A DNA stretch of 62,683 bases, the filler included, from a bacterium (lineage in GTDB: Bacteria; JACRDZ01; JAQUKH01), in NCBI GenBank assembly GCA_028719205.1. It is 3 parts of 3 records of this genome, joined end to end, with 100 filler letters (N's around TTAATTAATTAA, not from the genome) between each part and the next. Parts side by side here need not be neighbours in the genome. Positions count along the whole stretch, not along the records: positions 1 to 27,950 come from JAQUKH010000033.1; 2 more parts are not named here. One strand, written 5' to 3'. Both the position numbers and the translations under genes were made by a program. Positions 5,932 through 54,435 of this stretch are shown one piece after another (position 1 is the stretch's first letter; each line of letters opens with the position of its first letter). The notes beneath the pieces are model-generated. The model did not search any database and was not told the DNA's origin. It saw nothing but the letters and a program-made list of their open reading frames with translations.

Positions 5932-6309
5932 TCAAAATTTTGCCCCCCTGTTCAATACTTCCTTTACCTTTTCAACCACTTCTTTTGACTTGAAAGGAAG
6001 GCTTATATAACCATCTGCACCGGTATCCTGTACAATTTTTATCAGGCGGTTTTTTTCGATCGCGGAAACAAAAATTATCGGGATTTTCTTGAAATCCACA
6101 TCATTTTTTAATATATTGTAAACTTCGGCTCCGTTAATATCGGGCAGGTTATAATCTAATAAAATAAGCTGGTATTGATTGCTCTTTGCCTTGTTAACTC
6201 CATCCTTGCCTGTCTCTACGCACTCCACTGAATAACCGGCTTCACTGAGCCTTATTTCAAATACCATATTTAACGAAGAATTGTCTTCAATTACTAATAT
6301 TTTTTCCAT
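5932..6309 (-). CDS. Single-domain response regulator, atypical (Lys of KPF replaced)
   Basis: ILVIEDN, ILLDYNLPD, FVSA, GADGYISLPF. Confidence 0.88.
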   Translation of the reverse strand: MEKILVIEDNSSLNMVFEIRLSEAGYSVECVETGKDGVNKAKSNQYQLILLDYNLPDINGAEVYNILKNDVDFKKIPIIFVSAIEKNRLIKIVQDTGADGYISLPFKSKEVVEKVKEVLNRGAKF

Positions 6310-6323
6310 ATCCGGCCTCCCCG

Positions 6324-7226
6324 CTATTCAAGCATTTCTTTCACAAGCTTATCAATATCACATTGCGACAATGTGGAACCGCTTTCCGGTTTCAAAGATC
6401 CTGTTTCCGGCCGCCTGTAAACGCGGAGACGGTTATCCACAGTTTCAAAAACATCCGCAGCGGACCCTACAAGAGACTCGACCATTCCAAGGACCAAAAA
6501 ACCGCCGGGATTAAGACATTCATAAAGTTTAAGCAATACTTCCTCCTGCAGTTGTTTATTAAAATAGATCAAAAGGTTTCTGCAAAGAATTATATCGCAT
6601 AGCAGGAAAGGCGTATCAGTTATAATATTGTTGTACCTGAATTTTACTAAATTTCTTACATAGCTTTTTAATTTGTATTCATCTTCGCCTATTTTTTCAA
6701 AATATTCATCTAAAAGTTTTTTGCTGACCGCTTTTAATCTGTTTTTGGAATAAACCATATTCTTAGCCTCTTCTAAAGCATCTCTGTCAATATCCGTTCC
6801 GACTATATTCAATAAAAATTTTTTTCTCGCGTCACCCAATTTCTCAAGCAGAAGGATTGCCAGTGAATACGGCTCGTCTCCGCTTGAACACCCGCAGCTT
6901 AACGCGCGAATGATCTTGTGCTGATTAATACTTTTGGAAAATATTACCCGGGGAATTACTATTTTATCTATCGCGTTAAAACTTTCCGGATTCCTGAAAA
7001 ATTCCGTTACATTTATTGTTAAGGCATTGATCAACTCTTTATACTCTGCCGGATTAGTTTGTAATATTTTTATATAATCATCATATGAATCCGTTTTATA
7101 CCTGTCCATACGCGTGTTTATTCTTCTTAAAATAGAGGTTTCCCTATACTGGCTAAAATCAAGCCCTTTTTCATCATGCAGTTTTGTCAGTAAACGCATT
7201 ATCGCGGGATTATCTATTATTTTCAT
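6324..7226 (-). CDS. cheR: CheR-type methyltransferase (second copy) with C-terminal LSQxDIDxL peptide
   Basis: [42 protein letters not shown]. Confidence 0.92.
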
Positions 7227-9150
7227 TTTTTAGTTTATTTAATAACTCCTCGGCGGCAGTGCCATCCTGAGGGTATGCTTTTATTTTATAATCAAACTTT
7301 ATTTTTGACGAGTCCATGATCCTTTCAGCAAGCTTAATGCCGTTTTCTCCGCTGCTTTCCGCTATGATGATAATAGCTCTATTATGATAAACCAACACAA
7401 GATCATCTTTCCTTCTCATACTGTTTTTACACTGCTTTTCCAGATAGTCAATGTGGCTTTTATTTTCCTCTGTTAATTCCTTTCCATAGCCCGGATCAAT
7501 TAATATTAAAGAAAGATCTGTCCCTTCTTTTTTAACTCTGTCTATTTCCTGCTGGATCAGATCAATGTATGCTGAATTTTCATTAAATATCGGAATTGTA
7601 AACAAAAAAGCCGAGCCCTTTCCCAATTCTGACTCGATCCAGATCTTCCCTCCGTGTTTTTCAACAAGTTCCCTTGATATTACCAATCCTAATCCGGTAC
7701 CACCTGATCTATGTTTGGATCCCGCTTCCAATTGACTAAATTTTTTAAAAAGCTTTTTCTGGTCTTCATCTGAAATACCCAAGCCTGTGTCTTTGACAGA
7801 AATTACCACAAAATTTCCTGAAATATTACAGTTCACAATAATATTCCCACCGGGGGGAGTGAACTTCATCGAATTTCCGATCAAATTCGTAAGTATTTGT
7901 ATTATCTTATCGGGATCAGCAAAAATAGAAGGCAGACCATCGGGAATATTATTTATTATTCCTATCTTGCTATTTCTAGCTAAAAGTTCAAAACTTGCCA
8001 TTACCTGATTAACGATTTGCGAGATCATAACCGGAGCGCGTTTTAACTTGATCTTTCCTGACTCGATCTTTGACAGGTTCAAAAGGTCATTTACGATCCG
8101 TGCTAATCTGTCCGAGTCGTTAATCGCCGTGTTAAGGCACTTGATCTGTTTTTCGTTTACCGGCCCCACAGCGCCATCCATAATAATTGAAATTATCTCC
8201 CTTATAGAGGTCAAAGGCGTCCTTAGTTCATGGCTTACAGCATTCACGAAGTCGGATTTCATCTGTTCAATTTCTTTTTCTCTTGTAATATCAGTAAGAA
8301 GTGTCGCCCTTCCCATAAATATATTATCGGGGCCGAATATCGGGGTAGATCCTATATGAACTATTCTCTTTTTGGGTGCTCCGATATTAATGATCTTCTC
8401 ATTGTATTCATTTTTATTCGCTTCCAGCGACAAATCTTTCAGCATAACATCTATCGCAAATTTATTTTCCAGATTTCTGTGTAAATCAAGCATATTTAAA
8501 GCGGCATCATTGATAGTAATAATATTTTCCCAGTTATCCGTTATTATCAGGCCTTCTTTCATCCCGCCGACGATCGCTTCTATTCTTCTTTTTTCCTCTT
8601 CAACTTTCTTCTTTTCCCTTTCCAATAAATGTGATTGTTCTATAACCATATTCCGGTCCAGTAAACTGCGTAATCCCAAAGCAAGCTGGTTACAAAATAT
8701 TTCCAGAATATTCAACTTGAACCTTACAAAAGCATCTTTATGAGAACTGCCGACAGTTATATATCCAAGCGTTTTGTCTTTTACTTCTAACGGAAAAATA
8801 TAAAAAGAATTGAGAGACTTCAAAGATCCTTTTCTATTATCTATCGGGTCTTCCTCGATATATGTATTCAATTCCTGCCAGACTATTGAATTTGAATTTG
8901 CCCATTTCCGGATCTCCTGCTTAACTTTTTCTTTAAAAAGATCAAAAACAGGACTATTTAAATCTATAACTGAACTATAATTTATTAAAGCATGATCACT
9001 ATAAACCAATGCTAACGAGCAAAATTCACAATTCACTAAAAAGGGTATATTAATAATTGCCCATTTGATCAAAGGTTCCGGGCCATCCAGTGATAAGGCA
9101 AGATTATTTATTTCATTTAATACATCAGTTACTACTCTTTCCTTCTGCAT
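7210..9150 (-). CDS. GAF-PAS histidine kinase with C-terminal degenerate GGDEF domain (start taken at ATG 9150; ORF open to 9171)
   Basis: [32 protein letters not shown]; tail LSLILID...[15 protein letters not shown]...YPQDG. Confidence 0.9.
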
Positions 9151-9757
9151 TTGTACCAACCCCCATTGCATTTAATATTTTCCCCAAAGACAACATATCC
9201 GGTATAAAAAAGAAATTAGCTAATATCTTTTCATCAACAACAGTAAACTCTGTTTCAACAAGGATAACATGATCCGCTTCCTTGCTTGTTTCGATCAGTA
9301 TATTGTCAATTATCGCGCCGGCCATATCTTCAGCTAAAGCAGGCGATGATACCAAAAACTTCATTTTCAAAAGTTTGGCCATGGCGCTCAGATAAGCACC
9401 TGAAATTATTGTCATTGTTTCTTTTAAGGCGGATTGTTCCATATCACTTAAAACATTGGTTTGTTTAACCCGGCCCAGCAATAAACCCACTAATTTGCAG
9501 GCATCTTTCTTAAAAAAAGGAAACAGGATCACACCTGTGGCGTCACCCAGCAGTTGTAAATATATTGCTATTACAAGCGCCTCAGCATCGCCAAAAAGCT
9601 CAACTGCCTTTTCAATAGTGGAAAAATTTACCTTAGGAACCTCAATATTGATCTTTTTATTCAGCATCTGCGATAAAGCGGTAGCGGCATTACCCGCGCC
9701 TATGCTGACTATTTCTCTTAAAGCATCTTTTTGATCCTGATTCAACTCATTTTCCAT
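9125..9757 (-). CDS. cheC: CheC-family protein with both E-x2-N sites altered
   Basis: [40 protein letters not shown]. Confidence 0.88.
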
Positions 9758-9782
9758 GGCAGATCTCCTTTAGCCTTAATAA

Positions 9783-10394
9783 TTAAACACCCAAAGCACT
9801 GATAATTTTTTTAATTGCATCTCCAATCGGAATAAAAACTAAAAAGCCCTCTACTTTTGTAGCGGCTTCAGTAAATTCGGTTTTTATACAAAGAACATCC
9901 TCTATATCTTCTTTACTGATCCCGTTTTTATTAAGAAACTTTTCTGAAAGCCCGATCTTCCCAATATTGTAATCAGGGGTAGATACTATCAGGGAAAGCC
10001 TTGTCATTTCACCTACCGCGTTTAAATATGACGCGGCCACGATATTTCCGATCTCTCTCAGCGCCGATTGCTGAAATTCATCTGTAAGTTTTGAAATTAT
10101 CTTAGGTTTTCCCATTACAATATCGCATAACATTGCCGCGCCATCTTCCTGTATCGCGAAAATTATTATTCCTTTCACACTGCCCAATACCAATAAGCTT
10201 ATCTGTATAATTTCTTTTTGCGTGCCATTAAGAAACGTGTCAAGCCGCGACAGTTCAATAATATGAACAGAAGGAACAGCGATCATGATCTTTTTGCCCA
10301 GGAGTTGTGAGAGCGCGATCGCGGAATGTCCTGAACCGATATTCCCTGCCTCCTGCAAAGCACTTCTTTGCATTTCAGTTATTTTTATAGCCAT
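9783..10394 (-). CDS. cheC: CheC CheY-P phosphatase
   Basis: SALQEAGNIGSGH and SALREIGNIVAASYL, both E-x2-N intact. Confidence 0.92.
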   Translation of the reverse strand: MAIKITEMQRSALQEAGNIGSGHSAIALSQLLGKKIMIAVPSVHIIELSRLDTFLNGTQKEIIQISLLVLGSVKGIIIFAIQEDGAAMLCDIVMGKPKIISKLTDEFQQSALREIGNIVAASYLNAVGEMTRLSLIVSTPDYNIGKIGLSEKFLNKNGISKEDIEDVLCIKTEFTEAATKVEGFLVFIPIGDAIKKIISALGV

Positions 10395-10414: not shown

Positions 10415-12400
10415 TTATATTAATGTCGCAACATCTAAAATCAGCGCGACTTTTCCATCGCCAAGTATGGTCGCTCCGGCAAATCCATGAATTCCTTTAA
10501 ATTCTTTAGACAACTGTTTTATTACTATATCCTGCTGGCTTAACAGCTTATCAACCACAATACCAAACTGTTTATTTTCAAATTCAACAATTACGATCTT
10601 AATTAGCGAATTGTGTGCCGCGGTCCGTGAATCGCTGTTCATATCACAGACTAAAGAAAAGAGATTTTCGAGCCTTATAATCGGGAGGACTTTGTTACGA
10701 TGCAGGATTGTTTCACTTGCTTCTATTTTTTTTATATCATTTTCTTTCGCGACAAGGATTTCAATTACGCTCGATATGGGAATAGCAAAAGTTTTTTGTA
10801 AAATTACAACCATTAACGCCTGAACAACCGCTGTGGTTATTGGAAGGCGCATTGTGATCTTCGCCCCAAGGCCGACATCAGATTCAATCACTACACTGCC
10901 GCCAAGGCTTTCTGTTTTCTGTTTAACAACATCAAGGCCTACACCTCGGCCTGAAATATCTGTTACCTCCTGTTTAGTGCTCAAACCCGGATGAGCGGTC
11001 AAGAGGAGGATATCTTCCTTATTCATGGATTTTAAATCTTCTTCTTTTATTATGCCCCGCTCTATAGCTATTTTTTTTATAACATCAGTATCAATTCCTT
11101 TACCATCGTCTTTTACTTCGATCAGCACATAACTCTTTTCCCTGCGCGCTGAAAGAACTATTGTACCTTCTTCCTGCTTACCTTTATTTTTGCGTACTTG
11201 CGGGCTTTCAATGCCGTGGTCTACTGAATTTTTCAGCAAATGGATAAGCGAATCGCCAATTTCATCCAATACACTCCGGTCTAATTCTATGTCCCCGCCT
11301 GTCACATCAAACTTTATCAATTTAGATTCTCTCTTAGCTAAATCCCTTACAAGCCTTGGAAAACGTTCAAATATCTGGTTCACCGGAACAAGCCGCGCCT
11401 GCATAACTTCCATCTGCAGGTCATCAATATGGCGATTGAAATCTTCTATAACGGATTTCAGGTCATTGTCCTGGAATCTTAAACCAATTTCCAGAAGCCG
11501 TAACTTGCTGATAGCTAATTCTTCCACAAGATTCATTAATTTATCCAGGCGTTTTATATCAACACGCACACTCTGGATCTTGCGCATTTGCCCGCTCTGC
11601 CCCGCAGCTTCTTTAATTTCTTTAGTATCATCAATGGAACTTTGCTTTACGTCCTTATTCCATAACGGATTTATCTGTATCTCATTAACTATTACTTTTT
11701 CGACATCCAATATTTCAAAAACATTTTTTTCCACAATGTCTTTTTTTTCTTTAGTAACAAATATACAGCTGAAACTCTCTCCAAACTTTTCTTCTTCAAG
11801 ATCCTGGCTGCTTGGTATTGACTTTATCACCTCGCCGATATTGTGAAGATTTCTGAATATCATAAACGCCCTTACGCTCTTAAGGACGCAATTCTTTTCC
11901 AAATAAATTTTAATATAATAAGATTGAAAACCTTCTGACTTTACCCTGGCTAAAGTCTTTTTTTCAAACTCATTAAGGCTGATCTCATCAGTTACTTTTT
12001 CTTCATTAAATTTTATCCGCTTTGTCATAGCCTTGTCCAGTTTATTGACAAGCGGTTGTATATCTTTCTTGATTTCTTTTTCTTCCTGAACATCTCTTAC
12101 CATGCTTTCAAGGCTGTCAAATGATTCAAATAACAAATTTACCAATTCCTCTGAAATCTGCAGGGTATTGTCCCGCGCCTGTGATAAAACATCCTCCATC
12201 TTGTGGGATAGATCCGCTATAAGGCTATACCCCATGCTTGCGGACATACTTTTAAGCGTATGCGCCGACCTGAAGATCGTGTTTAACGCGTCTGTATTTT
12301 TAGGGTCTTTTTCTATAATAAGCAGATTTTTATTCATTTCCTGCAAAAACTCGCCCGATTCCTGAATATATAATTTTTTATATTCGTTCTGTTTTTCCAT
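10415..12400 (-). CDS. cheA: Chemotaxis histidine kinase CheA (P1-P2-P3-P4-P5)
   Basis: IFRSAHTLKS, SVRVDIKRLDKLMNLV, HLLKNSVDHGIE, SGRGVGLDVV, GATILGDGKVALILD. Confidence 0.97.
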   Translation of the reverse strand: MEKQNEYKKLYIQESGEFLQEMNKNLLIIEKDPKNTDALNTIFRSAHTLKSMSASMGYSLIADLSHKMEDVLSQARDNTLQISEELVNLLFESFDSLESMVRDVQEEKEIKKDIQPLVNKLDKAMTKRIKFNEEKVTDEISLNEFEKKTLARVKSEGFQSYYIKIYLEKNCVLKSVRAFMIFRNLHNIGEVIKSIPSSQDLEEEKFGESFSCIFVTKEKKDIVEKNVFEILDVEKVIVNEIQINPLWNKDVKQSSIDDTKEIKEAAGQSGQMRKIQSVRVDIKRLDKLMNLVEELAISKLRLLEIGLRFQDNDLKSVIEDFNRHIDDLQMEVMQARLVPVNQIFERFPRLVRDLAKRESKLIKFDVTGGDIELDRSVLDEIGDSLIHLLKNSVDHGIESPQVRKNKGKQEEGTIVLSARREKSYVLIEVKDDGKGIDTDVIKKIAIERGIIKEEDLKSMNKEDILLLTAHPGLSTKQEVTDISGRGVGLDVVKQKTESLGGSVVIESDVGLGAKITMRLPITTAVVQALMVVILQKTFAIPISSVIEILVAKENDIKKIEASETILHRNKVLPIIRLENLFSLVCDMNSDSRTAAHNSLIKIVIVEFENKQFGIVVDKLLSQQDIVIKQLSKEFKGIHGFAGATILGDGKVALILDVATLI

Positions 12401-12414
12401 TTTATCCCCGTAAA

Positions 12415-13464
12415 TTAAACTTTCACTAATTTTTCCATCTCTCTAGCCATTAGATGTAAAGGAACAATTCTGTCCGCCAGGCCCGCTTCTACTACCGATC
12501 GCGGCATGCCATAAACGATACAGCTTGATTTATCCTCAGCTAAAACCATGCCTCCCGCGGTTTTAATTGCCTGCGCGCCGAATGTTCCGTCAGTGCCCAT
12601 TCCGGTAAGAATAATACCGACAGTTTTTTGTTTAAAATTTTTTGCCACGGATCCCATCATTATATTCGCGCATGGCTTCACGCCAAGCTGAGCGGGTTTA
12701 TCGCTTAAAATTACATGCGGATTGTTTTCTCCTCCCTCAACTTCCATATGTATTCCCCCGCGGGCTATTATAACCTGCGCGGGTTTTATGGGCATCTGGT
12801 CTTGCGCCTCCAGGATACTGATTTTTGACTGCCAATTCAGCCTTTCGGAAAAACTTTTTGTAAAACCCACCGGCATATGCTGTACTACCAGAACTGCGGC
12901 AGGCAAATCCGCACTTAGAAGAGGTAAAATTGTTGACAATGCCTGAGCACCTCCCGTTGAAGAAGCAATCGCAAAAACCTTAATAATAGAAGACGGTTTT
13001 TTAATAATTTCCCTGCTCTCTTTTGCCTTCTCAGCCCAAATTAACTTTAACTTTTCAATAGGAACCTTTGACGCCAGCTTCACTTTTTCAATTATTTCTT
13101 TGCTTATTTTTGTAATATCAGGCGAGATCACGCCTCCCGGTTTGCAAATAAAATCTATTGCCCCAAACTCAAGAGCGCGTATGGTCTCCTCAGAACCCTC
13201 CTTTGTAAACGCGCTGATCATAACGCACGGAACAGGGCACTCGCTCATTATATAACCTAAAGTGTCTAAGCCGTTTAAAACCGGCATTTCTACATCTAAA
13301 GTAACAACATCCGGCTTCTGGTCATGAATAGCATCTATAGCTTCTTTACCGTCTTTCGCTATAGCGACTACTTCTATTTCAGGATCGCTTTGAAGTATTT
13401 CGCTTATCTTCTTGCGCATCAGAGCACTGTCATCAGCAATTACTACCCTTATTTTTTTATTCAT
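12415..13464 (-). CDS. cheB: Chemotaxis methylesterase CheB
   Basis: REC (DDS, TLDVEMP) plus SSTGG, QHMP, LTGMGTDG, YGMP. Confidence 0.97.
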   Translation of the reverse strand: MNKKIRVVIADDSALMRKKISEILQSDPEIEVVAIAKDGKEAIDAIHDQKPDVVTLDVEMPVLNGLDTLGYIMSECPVPCVMISAFTKEGSEETIRALEFGAIDFICKPGGVISPDITKISKEIIEKVKLASKVPIEKLKLIWAEKAKESREIIKKPSSIIKVFAIASSTGGAQALSTILPLLSADLPAAVLVVQHMPVGFTKSFSERLNWQSKISILEAQDQMPIKPAQVIIARGGIHMEVEGGENNPHVILSDKPAQLGVKPCANIMMGSVAKNFKQKTVGIILTGMGTDGTFGAQAIKTAGGMVLAEDKSSCIVYGMPRSVVEAGLADRIVPLHLMAREMEKLVKV

Positions 13465-13497
13465 TATTACTCCCGTAATTCATGCCGCTTGTTAAAA

Positions 13498-13986
13498 TCA
13501 TATTTCCTTAACTCCATGCACTATTGATCTAATTTTTAGTTTACCGGTTGAGGTATCCAGAATGATAGTCCTTCCGATTGAACCGCCGGTCTCCTCAGCA
13601 ATAAGCGGAATTTCAAGTTCCTTAAGTTTCTTCTTTGCCGCGTCTACATTTCGCTTGCCGATGGACAATGAATTATCTCTTATTATATTCGGGAACATAT
13701 TAGCTCCGCCTGCAATTTTTGCTTTAATAAACCTTTTATCGGCGCCAAGTTTTATAATTTGTGTTAAAAGCATATCAATAGATGAATTCACAAATTTCGC
13801 AGGGTTATTGCGTAAACTTTCCTTCATATTGTTTCCATCCGGCAGCATAGCATGCGCAAGGCCTCCCAATTTGGCATAATTTTCATATAAAACTATTCCC
13901 ACACAGGAACCTAACGCCCGGGTTTCAATATTATCAGGGCTCTTAACTACAGCCAATTGAGCCATATTTACGCGTATTGTCGCCAT
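13498..13986 (-). CDS. cheD: Chemoreceptor glutamine deamidase CheD
   Basis: ALGSCVG, AHAMLP, KIAGGANMF, IGKRN, ETGGSIGR. Confidence 0.95.
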   Translation of the reverse strand: MATIRVNMAQLAVVKSPDNIETRALGSCVGIVLYENYAKLGGLAHAMLPDGNNMKESLRNNPAKFVNSSIDMLLTQIIKLGADKRFIKAKIAGGANMFPNIIRDNSLSIGKRNVDAAKKKLKELEIPLIAEETGGSIGRTIILDTSTGKLKIRSIVHGVKEI

Positions 13987-14002: not shown

Positions 14003-14374
14003 TCATTTCAACGCTCTTTCAACCGCGCTTAACACACGCGAAGATTCAAATGGCTTTACGATAAAATCCTTGGCACCCGCCTGGATCGCTTCAACAACCA
14101 GCTGCTGCTGGCCCATAGCGCTTACCATAACTATTTTAGCCTTTTCATCATGTTTAATAATTTCTTTTACAGATTCAATTCCCCCCATTTCAGGCATAAT
14201 AATATCCATAGTTACAATATCCGGTTTCACTTTTTTATATTGTTCCATACCTTCTTTGCCATTCGCAGCTTCTCCCGCGACTTCATAACCGCCCTCTGTT
14301 AAAATATCAGTCAACATCCTCCGCATAAACACCGCGTCATCCACCACCAGCACTTTTCCTTTTGTCTTTGCCAT
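14003..14374 (-). CDS. cheY: Chemotaxis response regulator CheY (F1/Firmicutes-archaeal type)
   Basis: VDDAVFMR, TMDIIMP, VSAMGQQ, FIVKPF; position in che operon. Confidence 0.93.
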   Translation of the reverse strand: MAKTKGKVLVVDDAVFMRRMLTDILTEGGYEVAGEAANGKEGMEQYKKVKPDIVTMDIIMPEMGGIESVKEIIKHDEKAKIVMVSAMGQQQLVVEAIQAGAKDFIVKPFESSRVLSAVERALK

Positions 14375-14423: not shown

Positions 14424-14918
14424 TTACTCTTTGACTGCTTCTTTTACTTTTTTAATTTCTTCATGGCTCAGTATCCTGTCAACGTCAAGCAGAATAACTA
14501 ACCTGTTCTCCAGTTTTCCGACTCCTTTTATAAATTCCGAATGTATCTGTGTTTCGATCATCTCAGGCGCGGGATCAATACTTTCCTCCGGGATCCTTAA
14601 TACCTCCGGTACTTCATCTACAATCAGGCCTACCGTATTATCCTTAACTTCCGCTACAATTATCCTGGCCTTATCAGTAAGCTTAATCTCTTTCAGCCCA
14701 AACCTTTTGGCTAAATTCATTACAGCTATGATCTGACCGCGAAGGTTAATAACACCCATAATAAATTCCGGCGCGCTTGGTATAGAGGTTATATCCTGCA
14801 TTCTTATAATCTCTTTTATCTGTGAAATATCCACTCCAAACTCCTCACCTGCCATAAAAAATATTACAAGCTGTTTTTCTTTCACACTTTTTTTTTGCTC
14901 TTTTTTTTGGTCAGCCAT
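14424..14918 (-). CDS. cheW: Coupling protein CheW
   Basis: GVINLRGQII, VGLIVDEV, LVILLDVD. Confidence 0.96.
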   Translation of the reverse strand: MADQKKEQKKSVKEKQLVIFFMAGEEFGVDISQIKEIIRMQDITSIPSAPEFIMGVINLRGQIIAVMNLAKRFGLKEIKLTDKARIIVAEVKDNTVGLIVDEVPEVLRIPEESIDPAPEMIETQIHSEFIKGVGKLENRLVILLDVDRILSHEEIKKVKEAVKE

Positions 14919-14990
14919 TCTCCGCTCCTTTCATTACTCAACCATCGGATTTTCTTTCCAACAGTCATTTCCATTATAGCTTATCCTTAC

Positions 14991-15818
14991 TTATTTTTTA
15001 ACATAAATTCTATTTTTCGAGTCATATTCGATAAACCTATCTGTCATATGGACGGGAATCGATTCAACTCTGCCTAAGATCAAAAAACCGCCTTTATTTA
15101 ATGAACTTAAGAGCCGCTCAAGGATATGCTCCTGAAGTTTGCGGGAAAAATATATAAAAACATTACGGCATAAGATCATATCCATATTTTTCAAAGGAAC
15201 ATCCGCGATAATATCATTATAATAAAATTTCATATAATCCGGCCATCCTTCGCGGATCCAGTACCGTTTATTTCCTATATCATAAAAATATTTATTAATG
15301 AGCGATTTTTTTTGCGCTGATAAATTTTTAAATTGACAATCCTCGTATACCCCTTCTTTTGCCTTGGCAAGCACCCTGTTGTCGATGTCAGTCCCAAAAA
15401 TTGTTAATCCATAATTTGCTATTTCCTTATTCAAAATTTCCGCGAAAAGCATTAAAACCGAATACGCCTCTTCACCTGAAGAACAGGCACAACTCCATAC
15501 GCGGACCGGATTTGACCCCATTTTTTTTTTTGAGATCAGCTCAGGAATTACATTTTTTTCTATCGCGTCAAACACAGGCGTGTCCCGAAAAAATTCGGTC
15601 ACATTTATGGTCATTACATCCATTAAATTATCTATTTCTTCCGGATGCAATTTCAAATAATAATAATATTGTTCAAATCCCCCCGTTTTGGTGCTTCTTA
15701 CACGCGCCATTACCCGCCGGGAAAGAAGATTCTCCCTGTATTGTGAAAAATCAAGATTGCGTTCTTCTTTAATTTTCTCAAGAATATTTTGTAAATAAGG
15801 ACCCTTTTCTGAAATCAT
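14991..15818 (-). CDS. cheR: CheR methyltransferase (first copy; start taken at ATG 15818)
   Basis: [36 protein letters not shown]. Confidence 0.93.
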   Translation of the reverse strand: MISEKGPYLQNILEKIKEERNLDFSQYRENLLSRRVMARVRSTKTGGFEQYYYYLKLHPEEIDNLMDVMTINVTEFFRDTPVFDAIEKNVIPELISKKKMGSNPVRVWSCACSSGEEAYSVLMLFAEILNKEIANYGLTIFGTDIDNRVLAKAKEGVYEDCQFKNLSAQKKSLINKYFYDIGNKRYWIREGWPDYMKFYYNDIIADVPLKNMDMILCRNVFIYFSRKLQEHILERLLSSLNKGGFLILGRVESIPVHMTDRFIEYDSKNRIYVKK

Positions 15819-15822
15819 TTTT

Positions 15823-16293
15823 TTATATCTTTTTTTCCTTGTTATCCGTCGGCCATGCATTCAACCCAACCATCTCGTACATCTTAGAAAAACAAAAATC
15901 CGCGAAGATCCTTCGCGCGTCTTTATTCACGGCATCAAATAATATCCCAAATTCATACAAACCGCTTTCCGTTCTTTCCAGCCTTACTATTCTTCCTTCC
16001 AGAGTCAAGACCGCTGATTCAAACTCATCCAAAAGTATCTCAAGCTGCACCCTGGAGTTTATCGGGATATTTTCAGTCGTTAATAAAAGGCACCCGTTTA
16101 CAGAAATATTTTTTGCCGCCACAGATAATTCATTAACATTTTTACTGCCGCCGGTTTCATTAATAAGCTTGTACCTTACTTTTAGAGGCAAATCCAGACG
16201 AGCGCATTTTCTTTGTTCGTTAAAATCATCACTATTAACAGCATGTTTTAAAACGCTCTTGATATCTGCTGTTTTAAATTTAATTTTATCCAT
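15823..16293 (-). CDS. Stand-alone PilZ-domain protein
   Basis: RKCAR (RxxxR) and NISVNG (N-x-S-x-x-G), GRIVR, YEFGILF. Confidence 0.9.
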   Translation of the reverse strand: MDKIKFKTADIKSVLKHAVNSDDFNEQRKCARLDLPLKVRYKLINETGGSKNVNELSVAAKNISVNGCLLLTTENIPINSRVQLEILLDEFESAVLTLEGRIVRLERTESGLYEFGILFDAVNKDARRIFADFCFSKMYEMVGLNAWPTDNKEKKI

Positions 16294-16311
16294 GTCTGCC
16301 TCCTAGTATAT

Positions 16312-16333
16312 GTCACCAGTCACCGCGTCATCA
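16312..16333. repeat. Three degenerate 7-8-nt tandem repeats between comFB and pilZ
   Basis: GTCACCA GTCACCGC GTCATCA. Confidence 0.4.
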
Positions 16334-16343
16334 GAAAAAAGAC

Positions 16344-16676
16344 TTAATTCTTTTTTCTCTTTGGCGAACTAGTGTGATGTTGCCTCGTTGCCTTTAAAGT
16401 TTGCGTTTTTTTCTTATGTCTTGGATATTTTTTAACTATTTTTAGGGCCTTTGCGATCTCGCTCACAATATCCGTTTTAAATTGAATTTCCACTGCTTTT
16501 AGTTTCTTATAAGCCCTGCCTACATCTGAAACACAATACATAGGCGGAAGATTATTCAACGCCAGGGATATTGTATCCAATCTGCATCTTTCACAATTAC
16601 AATATTTTTTACTATAAGCCAATATTTGATCCAAAGTTTCCATTACCAACTCTTCCATATAATTCCTGTATTCCAT
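16344..16676 (-). CDS. ComFB-family protein (cyclic dinucleotide receptor family)
   Basis: NYMEELV, CNCERCRLD, ALNNLPPMY, IVKKYPRH. Confidence 0.9.
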   Translation of the reverse strand: MEYRNYMEELVMETLDQILAYSKKYCNCERCRLDTISLALNNLPPMYCVSDVGRAYKKLKAVEIQFKTDIVSEIAKALKIVKKYPRHKKKTQTLKATRQHHTSSPKRKKN

Positions 16677-16945: not shown

Positions 16946-18640
16946 TTAAATACTTTTTAACTTAAACTTTCCGACCATATCTTTTAATTCAACAGCTGTC
17001 CGCGCTACTTCCTGAGCCGAAGCTGACATCTCCTGCATTGACGCGGTCTGTTCTTCGACAGAGGCCGAAACCTGCTCGATCGTAGAGGAGGATTCTTTAG
17101 CAATTGAAGCAACTTCATTAACCGCTTTGGCCACACGTTCCGTATCCTTAACCTGCTCCTGGCCGCTCTGTTCAATTTCGCGGGTAAGTACATTTGCCTC
17201 ATTAGCCACTTTATTAAGATCTATTAACATCTCCATGATCTTAGAAACCTGAATTTTACCTTCCTGCATCTCTTTTGAGTTCAATTCTATCGCTTCAACA
17301 GCGTGGTTAGTTTCTGCCTGAATAGACTTGATCAACCCTCCGATTTCTCTTACCGCTTCAGCCGAACCTTCCGCTAATTTTCTGACTTCCTCCGCCACCA
17401 CCGCGAAGCCCCTGCCCATCTCACCCGCGCGGGCCGCTTCTATAGCCGCGTTTAACGCCAGTAAATTCGTCTGGTCGGCGATTTTGGTGATCGTTTCCGT
17501 GATTTCTCCGATCTGCTGAGATTTGTCTCCCAAACCGCGTATCACTTCCGCGGTATTTGTAATAGCCTTGTTAAGAATACCTATTTTATCAACTGTTTCA
17601 CTGGTCAAAGTACGGCCGTTTTCGGCGCGGGTTGAAGTTTGGTTTACCGTAACACCGGTAGACTGGGCCTTGGTAACCATCTGTTTTATCGTTATCGCTG
17701 CTTTTTCCGAAAGCCCGAAGGCTTCTTCAATACGTTCAAACTGGGTAGCCGCCCCTTTAGACACATGCTGTATCGCGCTGGAAATCTCCTCAATTGAAGC
17801 GTTCATCTCCTCGGCGGAAGAAGAAAGCTCTTCGCTTGAGCTTGCCACTTTTTCCGCGTTAACACGAATATTCATCACCATATCATGCATTGATTCTATA
17901 ATTTTATTAAAGGCCTCGGACAACTGGCCTATTTCGTCATTAGAGGATACCCCTATCCTCTGTGTAAGATCACCGGCCCGCGATGCCAAAGTGACCGCCG
18001 CAGCCTTAAGTTTGTCTATCGGGTTAGTTATAGTAAATCTGATAAAAGCAAACACCACCAAAATAGTTACCAGCAGGCACACCCCCGCTATCAAAATACT
18101 TAAGAAAGTTATATTTTTTATCAAAGCTTCTATCCTGTTACTTGAATATCCCAGTACGATCTCTCCGATACCTTTTTCCTCTTTGATTATAGGTATCCGT
18201 ATCTCATGCAATTTTAAATCCTTTACATCAACATCAGAAACAATATATTTCCCTGAAAGCAATTCTTTTGTATTTTTACCGACAGGCAAACGGAAATTTG
18301 GATCCTTCAACCTGTTGGCGGTTGTTACCTGCTGATCTTTCCTTACAATGACCGCGTAATAAATATCATCCTGTTTGTCAACAGTTATTTCACAAGGTGT
18401 ATTTAATATTTTAATTATCTCAGGTGAAAATTCATCTGAAATAGAAATAACGGAATTTAAAGGGCCCGCTACCACAGCGCTTAAGTTTTCCCCCACGGAA
18501 ACAATACGCTCGGAAAATTCTTTGTTCATATTATTTCTGAAGATCATCAAATAAAATATCATTAGAACAGCAATAGAAATAACCAGTGTACCGCTAACCA
18601 ATAATCCGATCTTCTTTCCAAGCGAAAAAAATTTTTTCAT
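16946..18640 (-). CDS. Methyl-accepting chemotaxis protein (TM-periplasmic domain-TM-HAMP-signalling)
   Basis: [65 protein letters not shown] methylation sites. Confidence 0.96.
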
Positions 18641-27950: not shown

Positions 27951-28050
27951 NNNNNNNNNNNNNNNNNNNNNNNNNNNNNNNNNNNNNNNNNNNNTTAATT
28001 AATTAANNNNNNNNNNNNNNNNNNNNNNNNNNNNNNNNNNNNNNNNNNNN
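27951..28050. other. Artificial contig join (N spacer with six-frame stop linker at 27995-28006)
   Basis: N44-TTAATTAATTAA-N44; genes on both sides are truncated. Confidence 0.95.
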
Positions 28051-49489: not shown

Positions 49490-50401
49490 ATGCCAGAAAA
49501 AAATAACGAATATCCTATAATAGAAATGAAGTTTACTTCAGAAGAGGATCTTATATATCTTGTTAAACAGAAATTAGGGCAGGTTGAGCCGGATATAAAG
49601 ATTATTAAAGAAAAAAAACTGTCTTTTGAGGATGAGGAGAATTTTTATCTTCTGGCTCATGATCAAAATAAAAAATTTGTCCTTATAGCGGTAAAAATAT
49701 ATGAAGATGAAAATTGGCTTTACCGTATTGTCGACCACCTTGAATGGTTCCAGCATTATCTCCAAAGATCGCACGATACACTCCCTCAAAATGAACGAAT
49801 AGCGCTTAATTTAAAAGACGCGAGAATAATTCTCATCGCCCCGTCTTTTTCAGATCCTTTAAAAAAATGTGTTCCCTACTTATCAATACCATTAAGCCTT
49901 TATGAGTATCGTTATCTAAAGGTCGGATATCAGCAGGGCCTGCTTTTAAATCCAATAAAATGGAAAAGTATGCAGATAGAAAATGTGGTTGAATTAAATA
50001 TTAATCCTCCGCTAAAACCGATCCTTGATAATTTTATCAATAAACTTTCAAAATTAGATACAAAAATAATCCTGAATTATGAAAAAAACCATATTGATCT
50101 GACCTTTAACGAGCAGTCCCTGGGGCAGATACGTTTCGCGAAGAAATTTTTCTGGATAGACACGGGGCTGGGATCATGGCAAAGTATTTGCGTGGAAAAT
50201 GAAGCATCTTCTCATATTGCGTGGGAAAAAATAAAACTGATATACCTTCATCTTGGCGGTGAAAATGAAGAGTTGTTAGAGGAAGATATGGAATCTTCCT
50301 CGGAATCCTGTTCACCGGTAAAAAATCCGAATGGGTTAACCCAGGAAGAAATTATGGAACTCAGCAAAATAGATCAGGATGTAAGAAATATCCTGAATTA
50401 A
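49490..50401 (+). CDS. Hypothetical protein, N-terminus resembling a degenerate NucS/PD-(D/E)xK fold
   Basis: SEEDL, FYLLAHDQNKKFVLIAVK, ARIILIAPSF; GGAGG RBS; acidic tail ending GLTQEEIMEL. Confidence 0.7.
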   Translation: MPEKNNEYPIIEMKFTSEEDLIYLVKQKLGQVEPDIKIIKEKKLSFEDEENFYLLAHDQNKKFVLIAVKIYEDENWLYRIVDHLEWFQHYLQRSHDTLPQNERIALNLKDARIILIAPSFSDPLKKCVPYLSIPLSLYEYRYLKVGYQQGLLLNPIKWKSMQIENVVELNINPPLKPILDNFINKLSKLDTKIILNYEKNHIDLTFNEQSLGQIRFAKKFFWIDTGLGSWQSICVENEASSHIAWEKIKLIYLHLGGENEELLEEDMESSSESCSPVKNPNGLTQEEIMELSKIDQDVRNILN

Positions 50402-54335: not shown

Positions 54336-54435
54336 NNNNNNNNNNNNNNNNNNNNNNNNNNNNNNNNNNNNNNNNNNNNTTAATTAATTAANNNNNNNNN
54401 NNNNNNNNNNNNNNNNNNNNNNNNNNNNNNNNNNN
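54336..54435. other. Artificial contig join (linker at 54380-54391)
   Basis: N44-TTAATTAATTAA-N44. Confidence 0.95.

Follow-up and report, generated by a model that had tools for sequence, protein, structure and literature searches.

The locus described here raises a simple question: why should one of two CheR methyltransferases in a chemosensory cluster end in a peptide resembling the CheY-docking segment of FliM, in a genome where no flagellar motor was found? The window that we analyzed is a stretch of 62,683 nucleotides from GCA_028719205.1 (lineage Bacteria; JACRDZ01; JAQUKH01), a genome (G000) that is 92.66% complete. It consists of separate contigs joined by N runs (27951-28050 and 54336-54435), with positions 1-27950 corresponding to contig C33 (JAQUKH010000033.1). 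The chemosensory genes lie on the minus strand in the order MCP, ComFB, PilZ, CheR1, CheW, CheY, CheD, CheB, CheA, CheC, CheC, sensor kinase, CheR2 and single receiver, which places cheR2 near the end of the run (Table 1). From this gene content (CheC, CheD, CheA with a P2 domain, and a CheY of the Thermotoga/Bacillus type) we infer a class F1-type system. Like the F1-type system of B. subtilis and T. maritima, it has CheA with P2, CheB, two CheC, CheD, CheW, an MCP, and a CheY that best matches that of T. maritima. Unlike that system, it comes with PilB/PilC-type genes and a second CheR bearing the peptide, and flagellar genes were not found.

Table 1. Features of the window (window positions) and, in the last row, tailed proteins encoded at other loci.
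Feature	Position	Strand	Basis or remark
Single-domain receiver REC2	5932..6309	-	Pfam; retains phospho-Asp52 but has Leu in place of the conserved Lys (YISLPF); rival candidate for the tail partner
CheR2 C-terminal peptide L286-E300 plus stop	6324..6371	-	FliM-N-like motif; predicted helix 288-299
CheR2 variable linker P273-T285	6372..6410	-	Predicted disordered; mean identity 0.31 over 274-285; pLDDT <50 at 277-284
CheR methyltransferase core (CheR_N plus SAM-binding domain)	6411..7226	-	FFRN, xEPY, xDID and CRN motifs intact
Sensor histidine kinase upstream of cheR2	7210..9171	-	HisKA, HATPase; GAF and PAS matches weak
Two CheC-family phosphatases	9125..10394	-	Pfam
CheA (Hpt, P2, dimerisation, HATPase, CheW), CheB, CheD	10415..13986	-	Pfam
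Thermotoga-type CheY, proposed tail partner	14003..14374	-	Closest PDB entry: CheY chain of 4iga, a complex of CheY with a FliM peptide
CheW, untailed CheR1, PilZ protein, ComFB	14424..16676	-	Pfam
Chemoreceptor, likely CheR2 substrate	16946..18640	-	Consensus-like methylation sites; C-terminal pentapeptide not recognisable
Cyclophilin-like (PF04126) tailed proteins	L280:1471-2004; L281:1081-1578; L292:1462-1965	-; +; -	Also L340-L345, L348, L358, L362

CheR2 (300 aa; 6324-7226, minus strand) ends ...[30 protein letters not shown], in which the terminal peptide [15 protein letters not shown] comes after a variable 13-residue linker. Its CheR_N and SAM-binding domains score 48.3 and 175.6 bits in Pfam, against a cut-off of 27. 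Residues R78, E118, D145 and N217, which we take to be catalytic, are invariant across 50 sequences and align with those of B. subtilis CheR (5ftw). An AlphaFold2 model shows a normal CheR fold, a linker of low confidence, and a tail helix at 288-299 (block mean pLDDT of 80, i.e. moderate); the top ten Foldseek matches to this model are all CheR structures, with TM values up to 0.76. By its motifs and predicted fold, then, CheR2 is an intact CheR-family methyltransferase. In loci L120 and L126 there is no other CheR between the MCP and cheR2 genes, which suggests that CheR2 is a native adaptation enzyme of this system.

An earlier note on this DNA described a flexible linker and a FliM/CheZ-like end on the second CheR but none on the first, and inspection of both ORFs confirms this: CheR1 (14991-15860) stops at the usual final strand and has no tail. 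Nor is the tail of CheR2 a chance match. With a profile of 49 homologue tails from which the window's own sequence was excluded, the window tail scores 30.6 bits (E = 1.2e-7), while the next best of the 14,930 frames of the genome reaches 8.2 bits. These data confirm the tail as a real feature.

Among 1,382 matched homologues of CheR2, we examined the best 120. The tail scores at least 12 bits in 57 of the top 60 (one of these being the window's own protein), a count that is partly circular, since the profile was built from 49 of the counted proteins, with the tails also visible by eye. The other three proteins are truncated. For ranks 61-120, the tail was seen in one fragment only. The search for a conserved C-terminal motif in orthologues that had been proposed earlier was thus carried out, and the motif is indeed conserved: in an alignment of 50 full-length homologues, Q288 and D292 are invariant (50/50 each), L286 and I291 nearly so (47/50 and 46/50), and positions 289-290 vary. 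Mean column identity is 0.69 for the motif, 0.31 for the linker and 0.70 for the catalytic core. The contrast between a motif conserved like the core and a drifting linker counts in favor of a functional docking tail. We also considered the tail as a mimic of a receptor methylation site, and rejected this on the grounds that positions 289-290 vary.

When tails were removed before tree building, the 24 tailed rows formed one group apart from CheR1 (SH-aLRT of 99 in a quick tree of 50 rows), suggesting that the tail marks a single CheR clade. This clade is small and patchy. Among representatives at 50% identity, only two of the 150 best carry the tail (P0056 and P0241), a tailed CheR occurs in 1 of 301 genomes of one phylum sample, and no close match to the tailed CheR was found in two genomes of the same genus. 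Those of the best 120 of 1,382 homologues that are named carry the labels Omnitrophica, Patescibacteria, Poribacteria and Deltaproteobacteria. Fusions of the tail to longer proteins were sought and numbered 0 of 120 among the matches listed, which is weak evidence. From the 50%-identity representatives, P0250 resembled a fusion but was rejected, as it is a CheR-PAS protein without the motif.

The N-terminal LSQXEIDALL segment of FliM is reported to bind CheY-P (PMC6700473), with D12 forming a salt bridge to K119 of E. coli CheY (10.1101/781468). The invariant Q288 and D292 of the tail align with FliM Q8 and D12. When a profile of 15 tails was searched against 177,635 PDB sequences, the FliM peptide of T. 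maritima (4iga_B) came first, at E = 0.13, followed by an Hsp70 helix, and scans of the tail with Pfam and NCBIfam matched no FliM or other relevant family. Judged by these two results, the FliM likeness of the tail is not significant by itself. We then have a blind test, in which a tail profile made without FliM input was run on 40 diverse genomes, 29 of them with FliM. The FliM N-terminus was the best match in 19/29 of the FliM-bearing genomes and was found at E ≤1 in 21/29. Together with the first rank of 4iga_B, this supports the resemblance that had been proposed for the peptide.

What the tail and the FliM/FliY peptide have in common is an L-S-Q-x-x-I-D-x-hydrophobic-hydrophobic core, a short helix, a flexible tether and the presence of a Thermotoga-type CheY. 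They differ in that the FliM/FliY peptide is the N-terminus of a C-ring protein, whereas the tail is the C-terminus of a methyltransferase in a genome where flagellar genes were not found. The tail is also less strict at E10, where only 36% of CheR tails have Glu (and 38% Asp), and replaces LL by IV, with an extra ML pair; the FliM set in this comparison comprised 23 of 27 loci, chosen by motif pattern. Thus, the tail has the look of a FliM peptide and yet belongs to no FliM protein.

Could this likeness be a coincidence, the tail being a generic capped amphipathic helix that serves stability or oligomerisation, or an encapsulation-type tag? Helices from the Hsp70 lid, aldehyde dehydrogenase and lysozyme do score alike in PDB and genome searches. 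With a mixed tail profile, FliM drops to rank 7 in the PDB, behind lysozymes, and across 301 genomes the strong matches of this profile fall only in its own training genomes. Most of its weaker matches were to internal helices or DnaK-like ones, so this search added no strong carrier to those already known. However, a generic helix would not be expected to keep Q and D invariant after a free linker, to have FliM as its best match in most FliM-bearing genomes of the blind test, or to track CheY and CheD as this peptide does (see below), and no microcompartment shell gene (PF00936) was found in G000. We consider a generic helix very improbable.

The setting of the tail gave no sign of a motor. 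In G000, at 92.66% completeness, there was no match to flagellin, FliMN_C, FliM or the rod domain, in line with the non-motor output that the earlier note allowed for, and none to CheZ (PF04344); PilB/PilT-type ATPases are present. Five other genomes with a tailed CheR likewise gave no match to flagellin or the rod domain, and all five contain pilus-type ATPases. In L032 and L113, pilB and pilC follow the cheR2 cluster. Three of these five (G103-G105) have matches to FliMN_C/FliM, which we rejected as signs of flagella: these lie in type III secretion-like clusters (L191-L193) with FliG-, FliM- and FliN-like proteins, no CheY-binding peptide stands at the start of the FliM-like ones, and flagellin and rod genes were not found in these genomes.

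If the tail docks a receiver, which one? Searched against the PDB, the window CheY matches 4iga_A best (E = 3.8e-48), so that this CheY and the tail profile find their top matches in the two chains of one complex, which we count in favor of CheY as the partner. The α4-β5-α5 (FliM-binding) face of CheY is nearly invariant in 8/8 orthologues. Two points weigh on the other side: the window protein has Ala at the position equivalent to K119, and sister systems whose CheR lacks the tail preserve this face too, so that CheA-P2 binding could explain its conservation. Thermotoga-type CheY accompanies the tailed CheR in seven of the eight cases with context (G000, G101-G104, L120 and L126); the eighth is G105, in which such a CheY or CheD was not found. 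We also modeled CheY with CheR2 residues 271-300, alongside three controls. The complex scored 0.57, compared to 0.02 for the best control; runs agreed in at least 89% of contacts, and partner pLDDT was at least 63. The mark that this model reached is passed by 116/157 solved and 2/215 mismatched pairs, and scores of 0.60 or lower include only 18/157 solved pairs and both mismatches. As a like complex has already been solved, the pass may reflect memory, and we take the model as weak support.

The single-domain receiver downstream of cheR2 is the other evident candidate, and would couple CheR2 to the neighboring kinases and pilus genes, not to CheA. Such a receiver follows the tailed CheR in 12/14 distinct loci versus 16/127 untailed CheR rows (these not deduplicated, with 15 edge cases excluded). 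Adjacent receivers keep the equivalents of Tyr106 and mostly of Lys/Arg119, and G105, where no Thermotoga-type CheY was found, has one of this type in addition to its tailed CheR. On the other hand, their residues matching 95, 96 and 99 of E. coli CheY, which are presumably part of the FliM-binding face, vary freely; the window copy is divergent, with Leu for the conserved Lys, even though the tail is intact; and L126 retains the tail without an adjacent receiver. Close orthologues of the adjacent receiver (≥60% identity) are, moreover, found in 9/14 peptide-free genomes versus 2/8 peptide-bearing ones. These points make the receiver a distinctly improbable partner, and Thermotoga-type CheY appears the likelier of the two. 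The earlier note had left this choice open, proposing direct recruitment by CheY~P or by the adjacent receiver; the former alternative stands as likely, on the nearly invariant face, the co-occurrence and the weakly supportive model, and the latter is less supported, given its variable face, the Lys missing here and its failure to track the peptide. A second receiver that has the phospho-Asp but not the conserved Lys in its usual place (L256:9626-10021, on G000:C2, with YISL instead of YITK) groups with the window receiver in the tree. A receiver of the typical kind lies next to pilB on G000:C48.

We think it probable, from sequence and modeling, that the tail binds CheY, whether or not methylation is affected. 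The fuller reading that we favor, tentatively and with nearly as much room for doubt as for belief turned slightly toward doubt, is that through this docking the output of the kinase would act straight on receptor methylation, in a genome where no motor was found. CheA would phosphorylate CheY, and the tethered tail helix of CheR2 would catch CheY~P. By analogy with FliM, capture would use the α4-β5-α5 groove and prefer CheY~P. Captured CheY~P might then change the activity of CheR2, its choice of sites or its access to receptors, giving direct feedback on methylation; this is the least certain step. FliM-N is described as catching CheY with high affinity before a second contact is made (PMC9126983), a scheme that fits a tether on an enzyme such as CheR2.

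Such wiring would be new. In B. subtilis, phosphorylation feedback on adaptation passes through CheC/CheD: the published model attributes the coordination of selective methylation to CheY~P acting via the receptor, CheC and CheD, not via CheR (PMC340952). A dock for CheY~P on CheR itself would be different from this, and CheR2, if the reading holds, would be the first methyltransferase under direct CheY~P control. The textbook route of feedback from phosphorylation to adaptation is CheB, and CheR, to our knowledge, is treated in such schemes as unregulated by CheY.

Cyclophilin-like proteins (PF04126) of sister genomes were also matched by the tail profile, at their C-termini. The related chemosensory cluster of these genomes includes a CheR without the tail, and the rod domain had no match in them (the rod gene was not found in 21 genomes). 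Here the peptide reads RKLSQxEIDxLVxxLL and again is C-terminal after a variable linker, in 105 of the 120 best homologues (P0390-P0509), of which those named are labelled Omnitrophota. In the 301-genome sample, 22 genomes match the cyclophilin-like family, 8 with a tailed copy and 14 with untailed copies only. Thermotoga-type CheY (E 1e-35) is present in 8/8 of the former and 0/14 of the latter, and CheD in 8/8 versus 1/14 (that one a weaker match), counts that come from related, incomplete genomes, with a query built from four of the eight and CheY scoring on at most 14 candidates per genome. Viewed from the CheY side, 13 sister genomes have this CheY: 8 with the peptide, one with a probable remnant (L384), and 4 in which no peptide was found. 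In G318, a closer CheY type is present and the peptide was not found.

The tails of both carriers have features that FliM lacks, namely Val at FliM position 15 and a hydrophobic pair at 18-19. A profile of cyclophilin-type tails gives the window tail only 6.1 bits. The tailed cyclophilin-like copies may stem from one event; several of them sit on long branches in the carrier tree, in which G390, a tailed genome, is labelled untailed. One broader idea is that, in uncultured bacteria with pili but no flagella, a Thermotoga-type chemotaxis pathway has been rerouted and the FliM docking peptide redeployed as a portable C-terminal tag. CheR would carry this tag in one lineage and a cyclophilin-like protein in a second, and both of these soluble proteins would be direct targets of CheY~P. 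We regard this as possible but rather doubtful. Tailed proteins would be candidates for the target of CheY~P in bacteria that have a complete chemosensory system but no flagella, and the peptide serves as a search tag for such targets, the cyclophilin-like carrier being an example.

A cyclophilin-like carrier cannot methylate receptors, and hence the chemistry of the carrier may not matter. This raises an explanation absent from the earlier reading, in which the tail may be a sink or tether that buffers CheY~P or presents it to neighboring CheC, with CheR2 methylation unaffected. FliY, after all, joins a CheY-binding peptide to a CheC-type domain. The frequency of the peptide on an unrelated fold, the long carrier branches and the lack of a cyclophilin-like match in G000 fit a sink, as does the position of cheC, which immediately precedes cheR2 in L120 and L126 and is separated from it by one gene in L112 and in the window. 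Against it, cheR2 lies apart from cheC in L031, L032 and L113, and the CheR2 core is conserved like the tail, with its catalytic motifs intact. We judge a pure sink, the main rival, to be rather unlikely, and retain feedback on methylation as the preferred reading.

The residues shared by both carriers and lacking in FliM might instead point to a different dock: the receiver domain of CheB, another shared protein, or the core of CheR2 itself, with the tail as an autoinhibitory helix. The tail helix is modeled with moderate confidence, and an appended domain is reported to inhibit methylation by FrzF (PMC3447774). An intramolecular site, however, cannot account for the same peptide on a cyclophilin-like fold, and the variation at positions 289-290 is unlike a receptor-mimic methylation site. 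A dock other than CheY or the adjacent receiver seems unlikely to us, and CheY remains our preferred partner.

In layout, the tailed CheR has a counterpart in CheZ, where a C-terminal helix likewise follows a flexible linker on an enzyme core, the carrier there being a phosphatase and here a CheR. A 491-aa protein of the FliM-bearing genome G032 (L294:79-1554, plus strand) has a weak CheZ match (Pfam E = 0.0038, below the cut-off) and ends in a similar peptide matched by the tail profile.

Other additions to CheR are known. They include TPR domains (PMC3447774), MapZ binding (PMC6370697) and ComFB-CheR fusions in Omnitrophota (PMC12448109); P0251 is an example of the last. CheR-TPR proteins (of the FrzF and WspC type), MapZ-CheR1 and ComFB-CheR resemble CheR2 in joining a CheR core to an added interaction or regulatory element. 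Their inputs are TPR, PilZ and ComFB, whereas CheR2 has a 15-residue peptide of the receiver-docking type; the TPR domain of CheR-TPR is C-terminal, and CheR2 has none by Pfam. In the leading results of our literature searches, no description was found of a CheR or cyclophilin-like protein with a FliM-like peptide.

Several further observations concern the surrounding genes. In the window, ComFB and the PilZ protein precede CheR1 (14991-16676), and RxxxR and NxSxxG, which we take to be the PilZ motifs, are intact in the latter; by analogy, this arrangement resembles MapZ-type c-di-GMP control of CheR1. The kinase at 7210-9171 has ∼120 residues past the ATPase domain with no Pfam match, and similar C-termini recur in neighboring kinases and as stand-alone ORFs (L031:2352-2741). 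A 303-aa ORF at 49490-50401, with an acidic C-terminal segment, had no match in Pfam or NCBIfam. Sister clusters L259, L261-L265 and L268 contain ComFB and more than one CheC gene; their CheR lacks the tail and comes immediately ahead of CheY, and pilus genes are often adjacent. Five of these seven hold a gene of ∼715 aa that is FtsA/PilM-like in the copy tested. Finally, G000 has a second chemosensory cluster on contig C16 (L195), comprising two CheW, an MCP, a hybrid CheA, CheB, a multi-domain receiver protein and a CheR of 486 aa.
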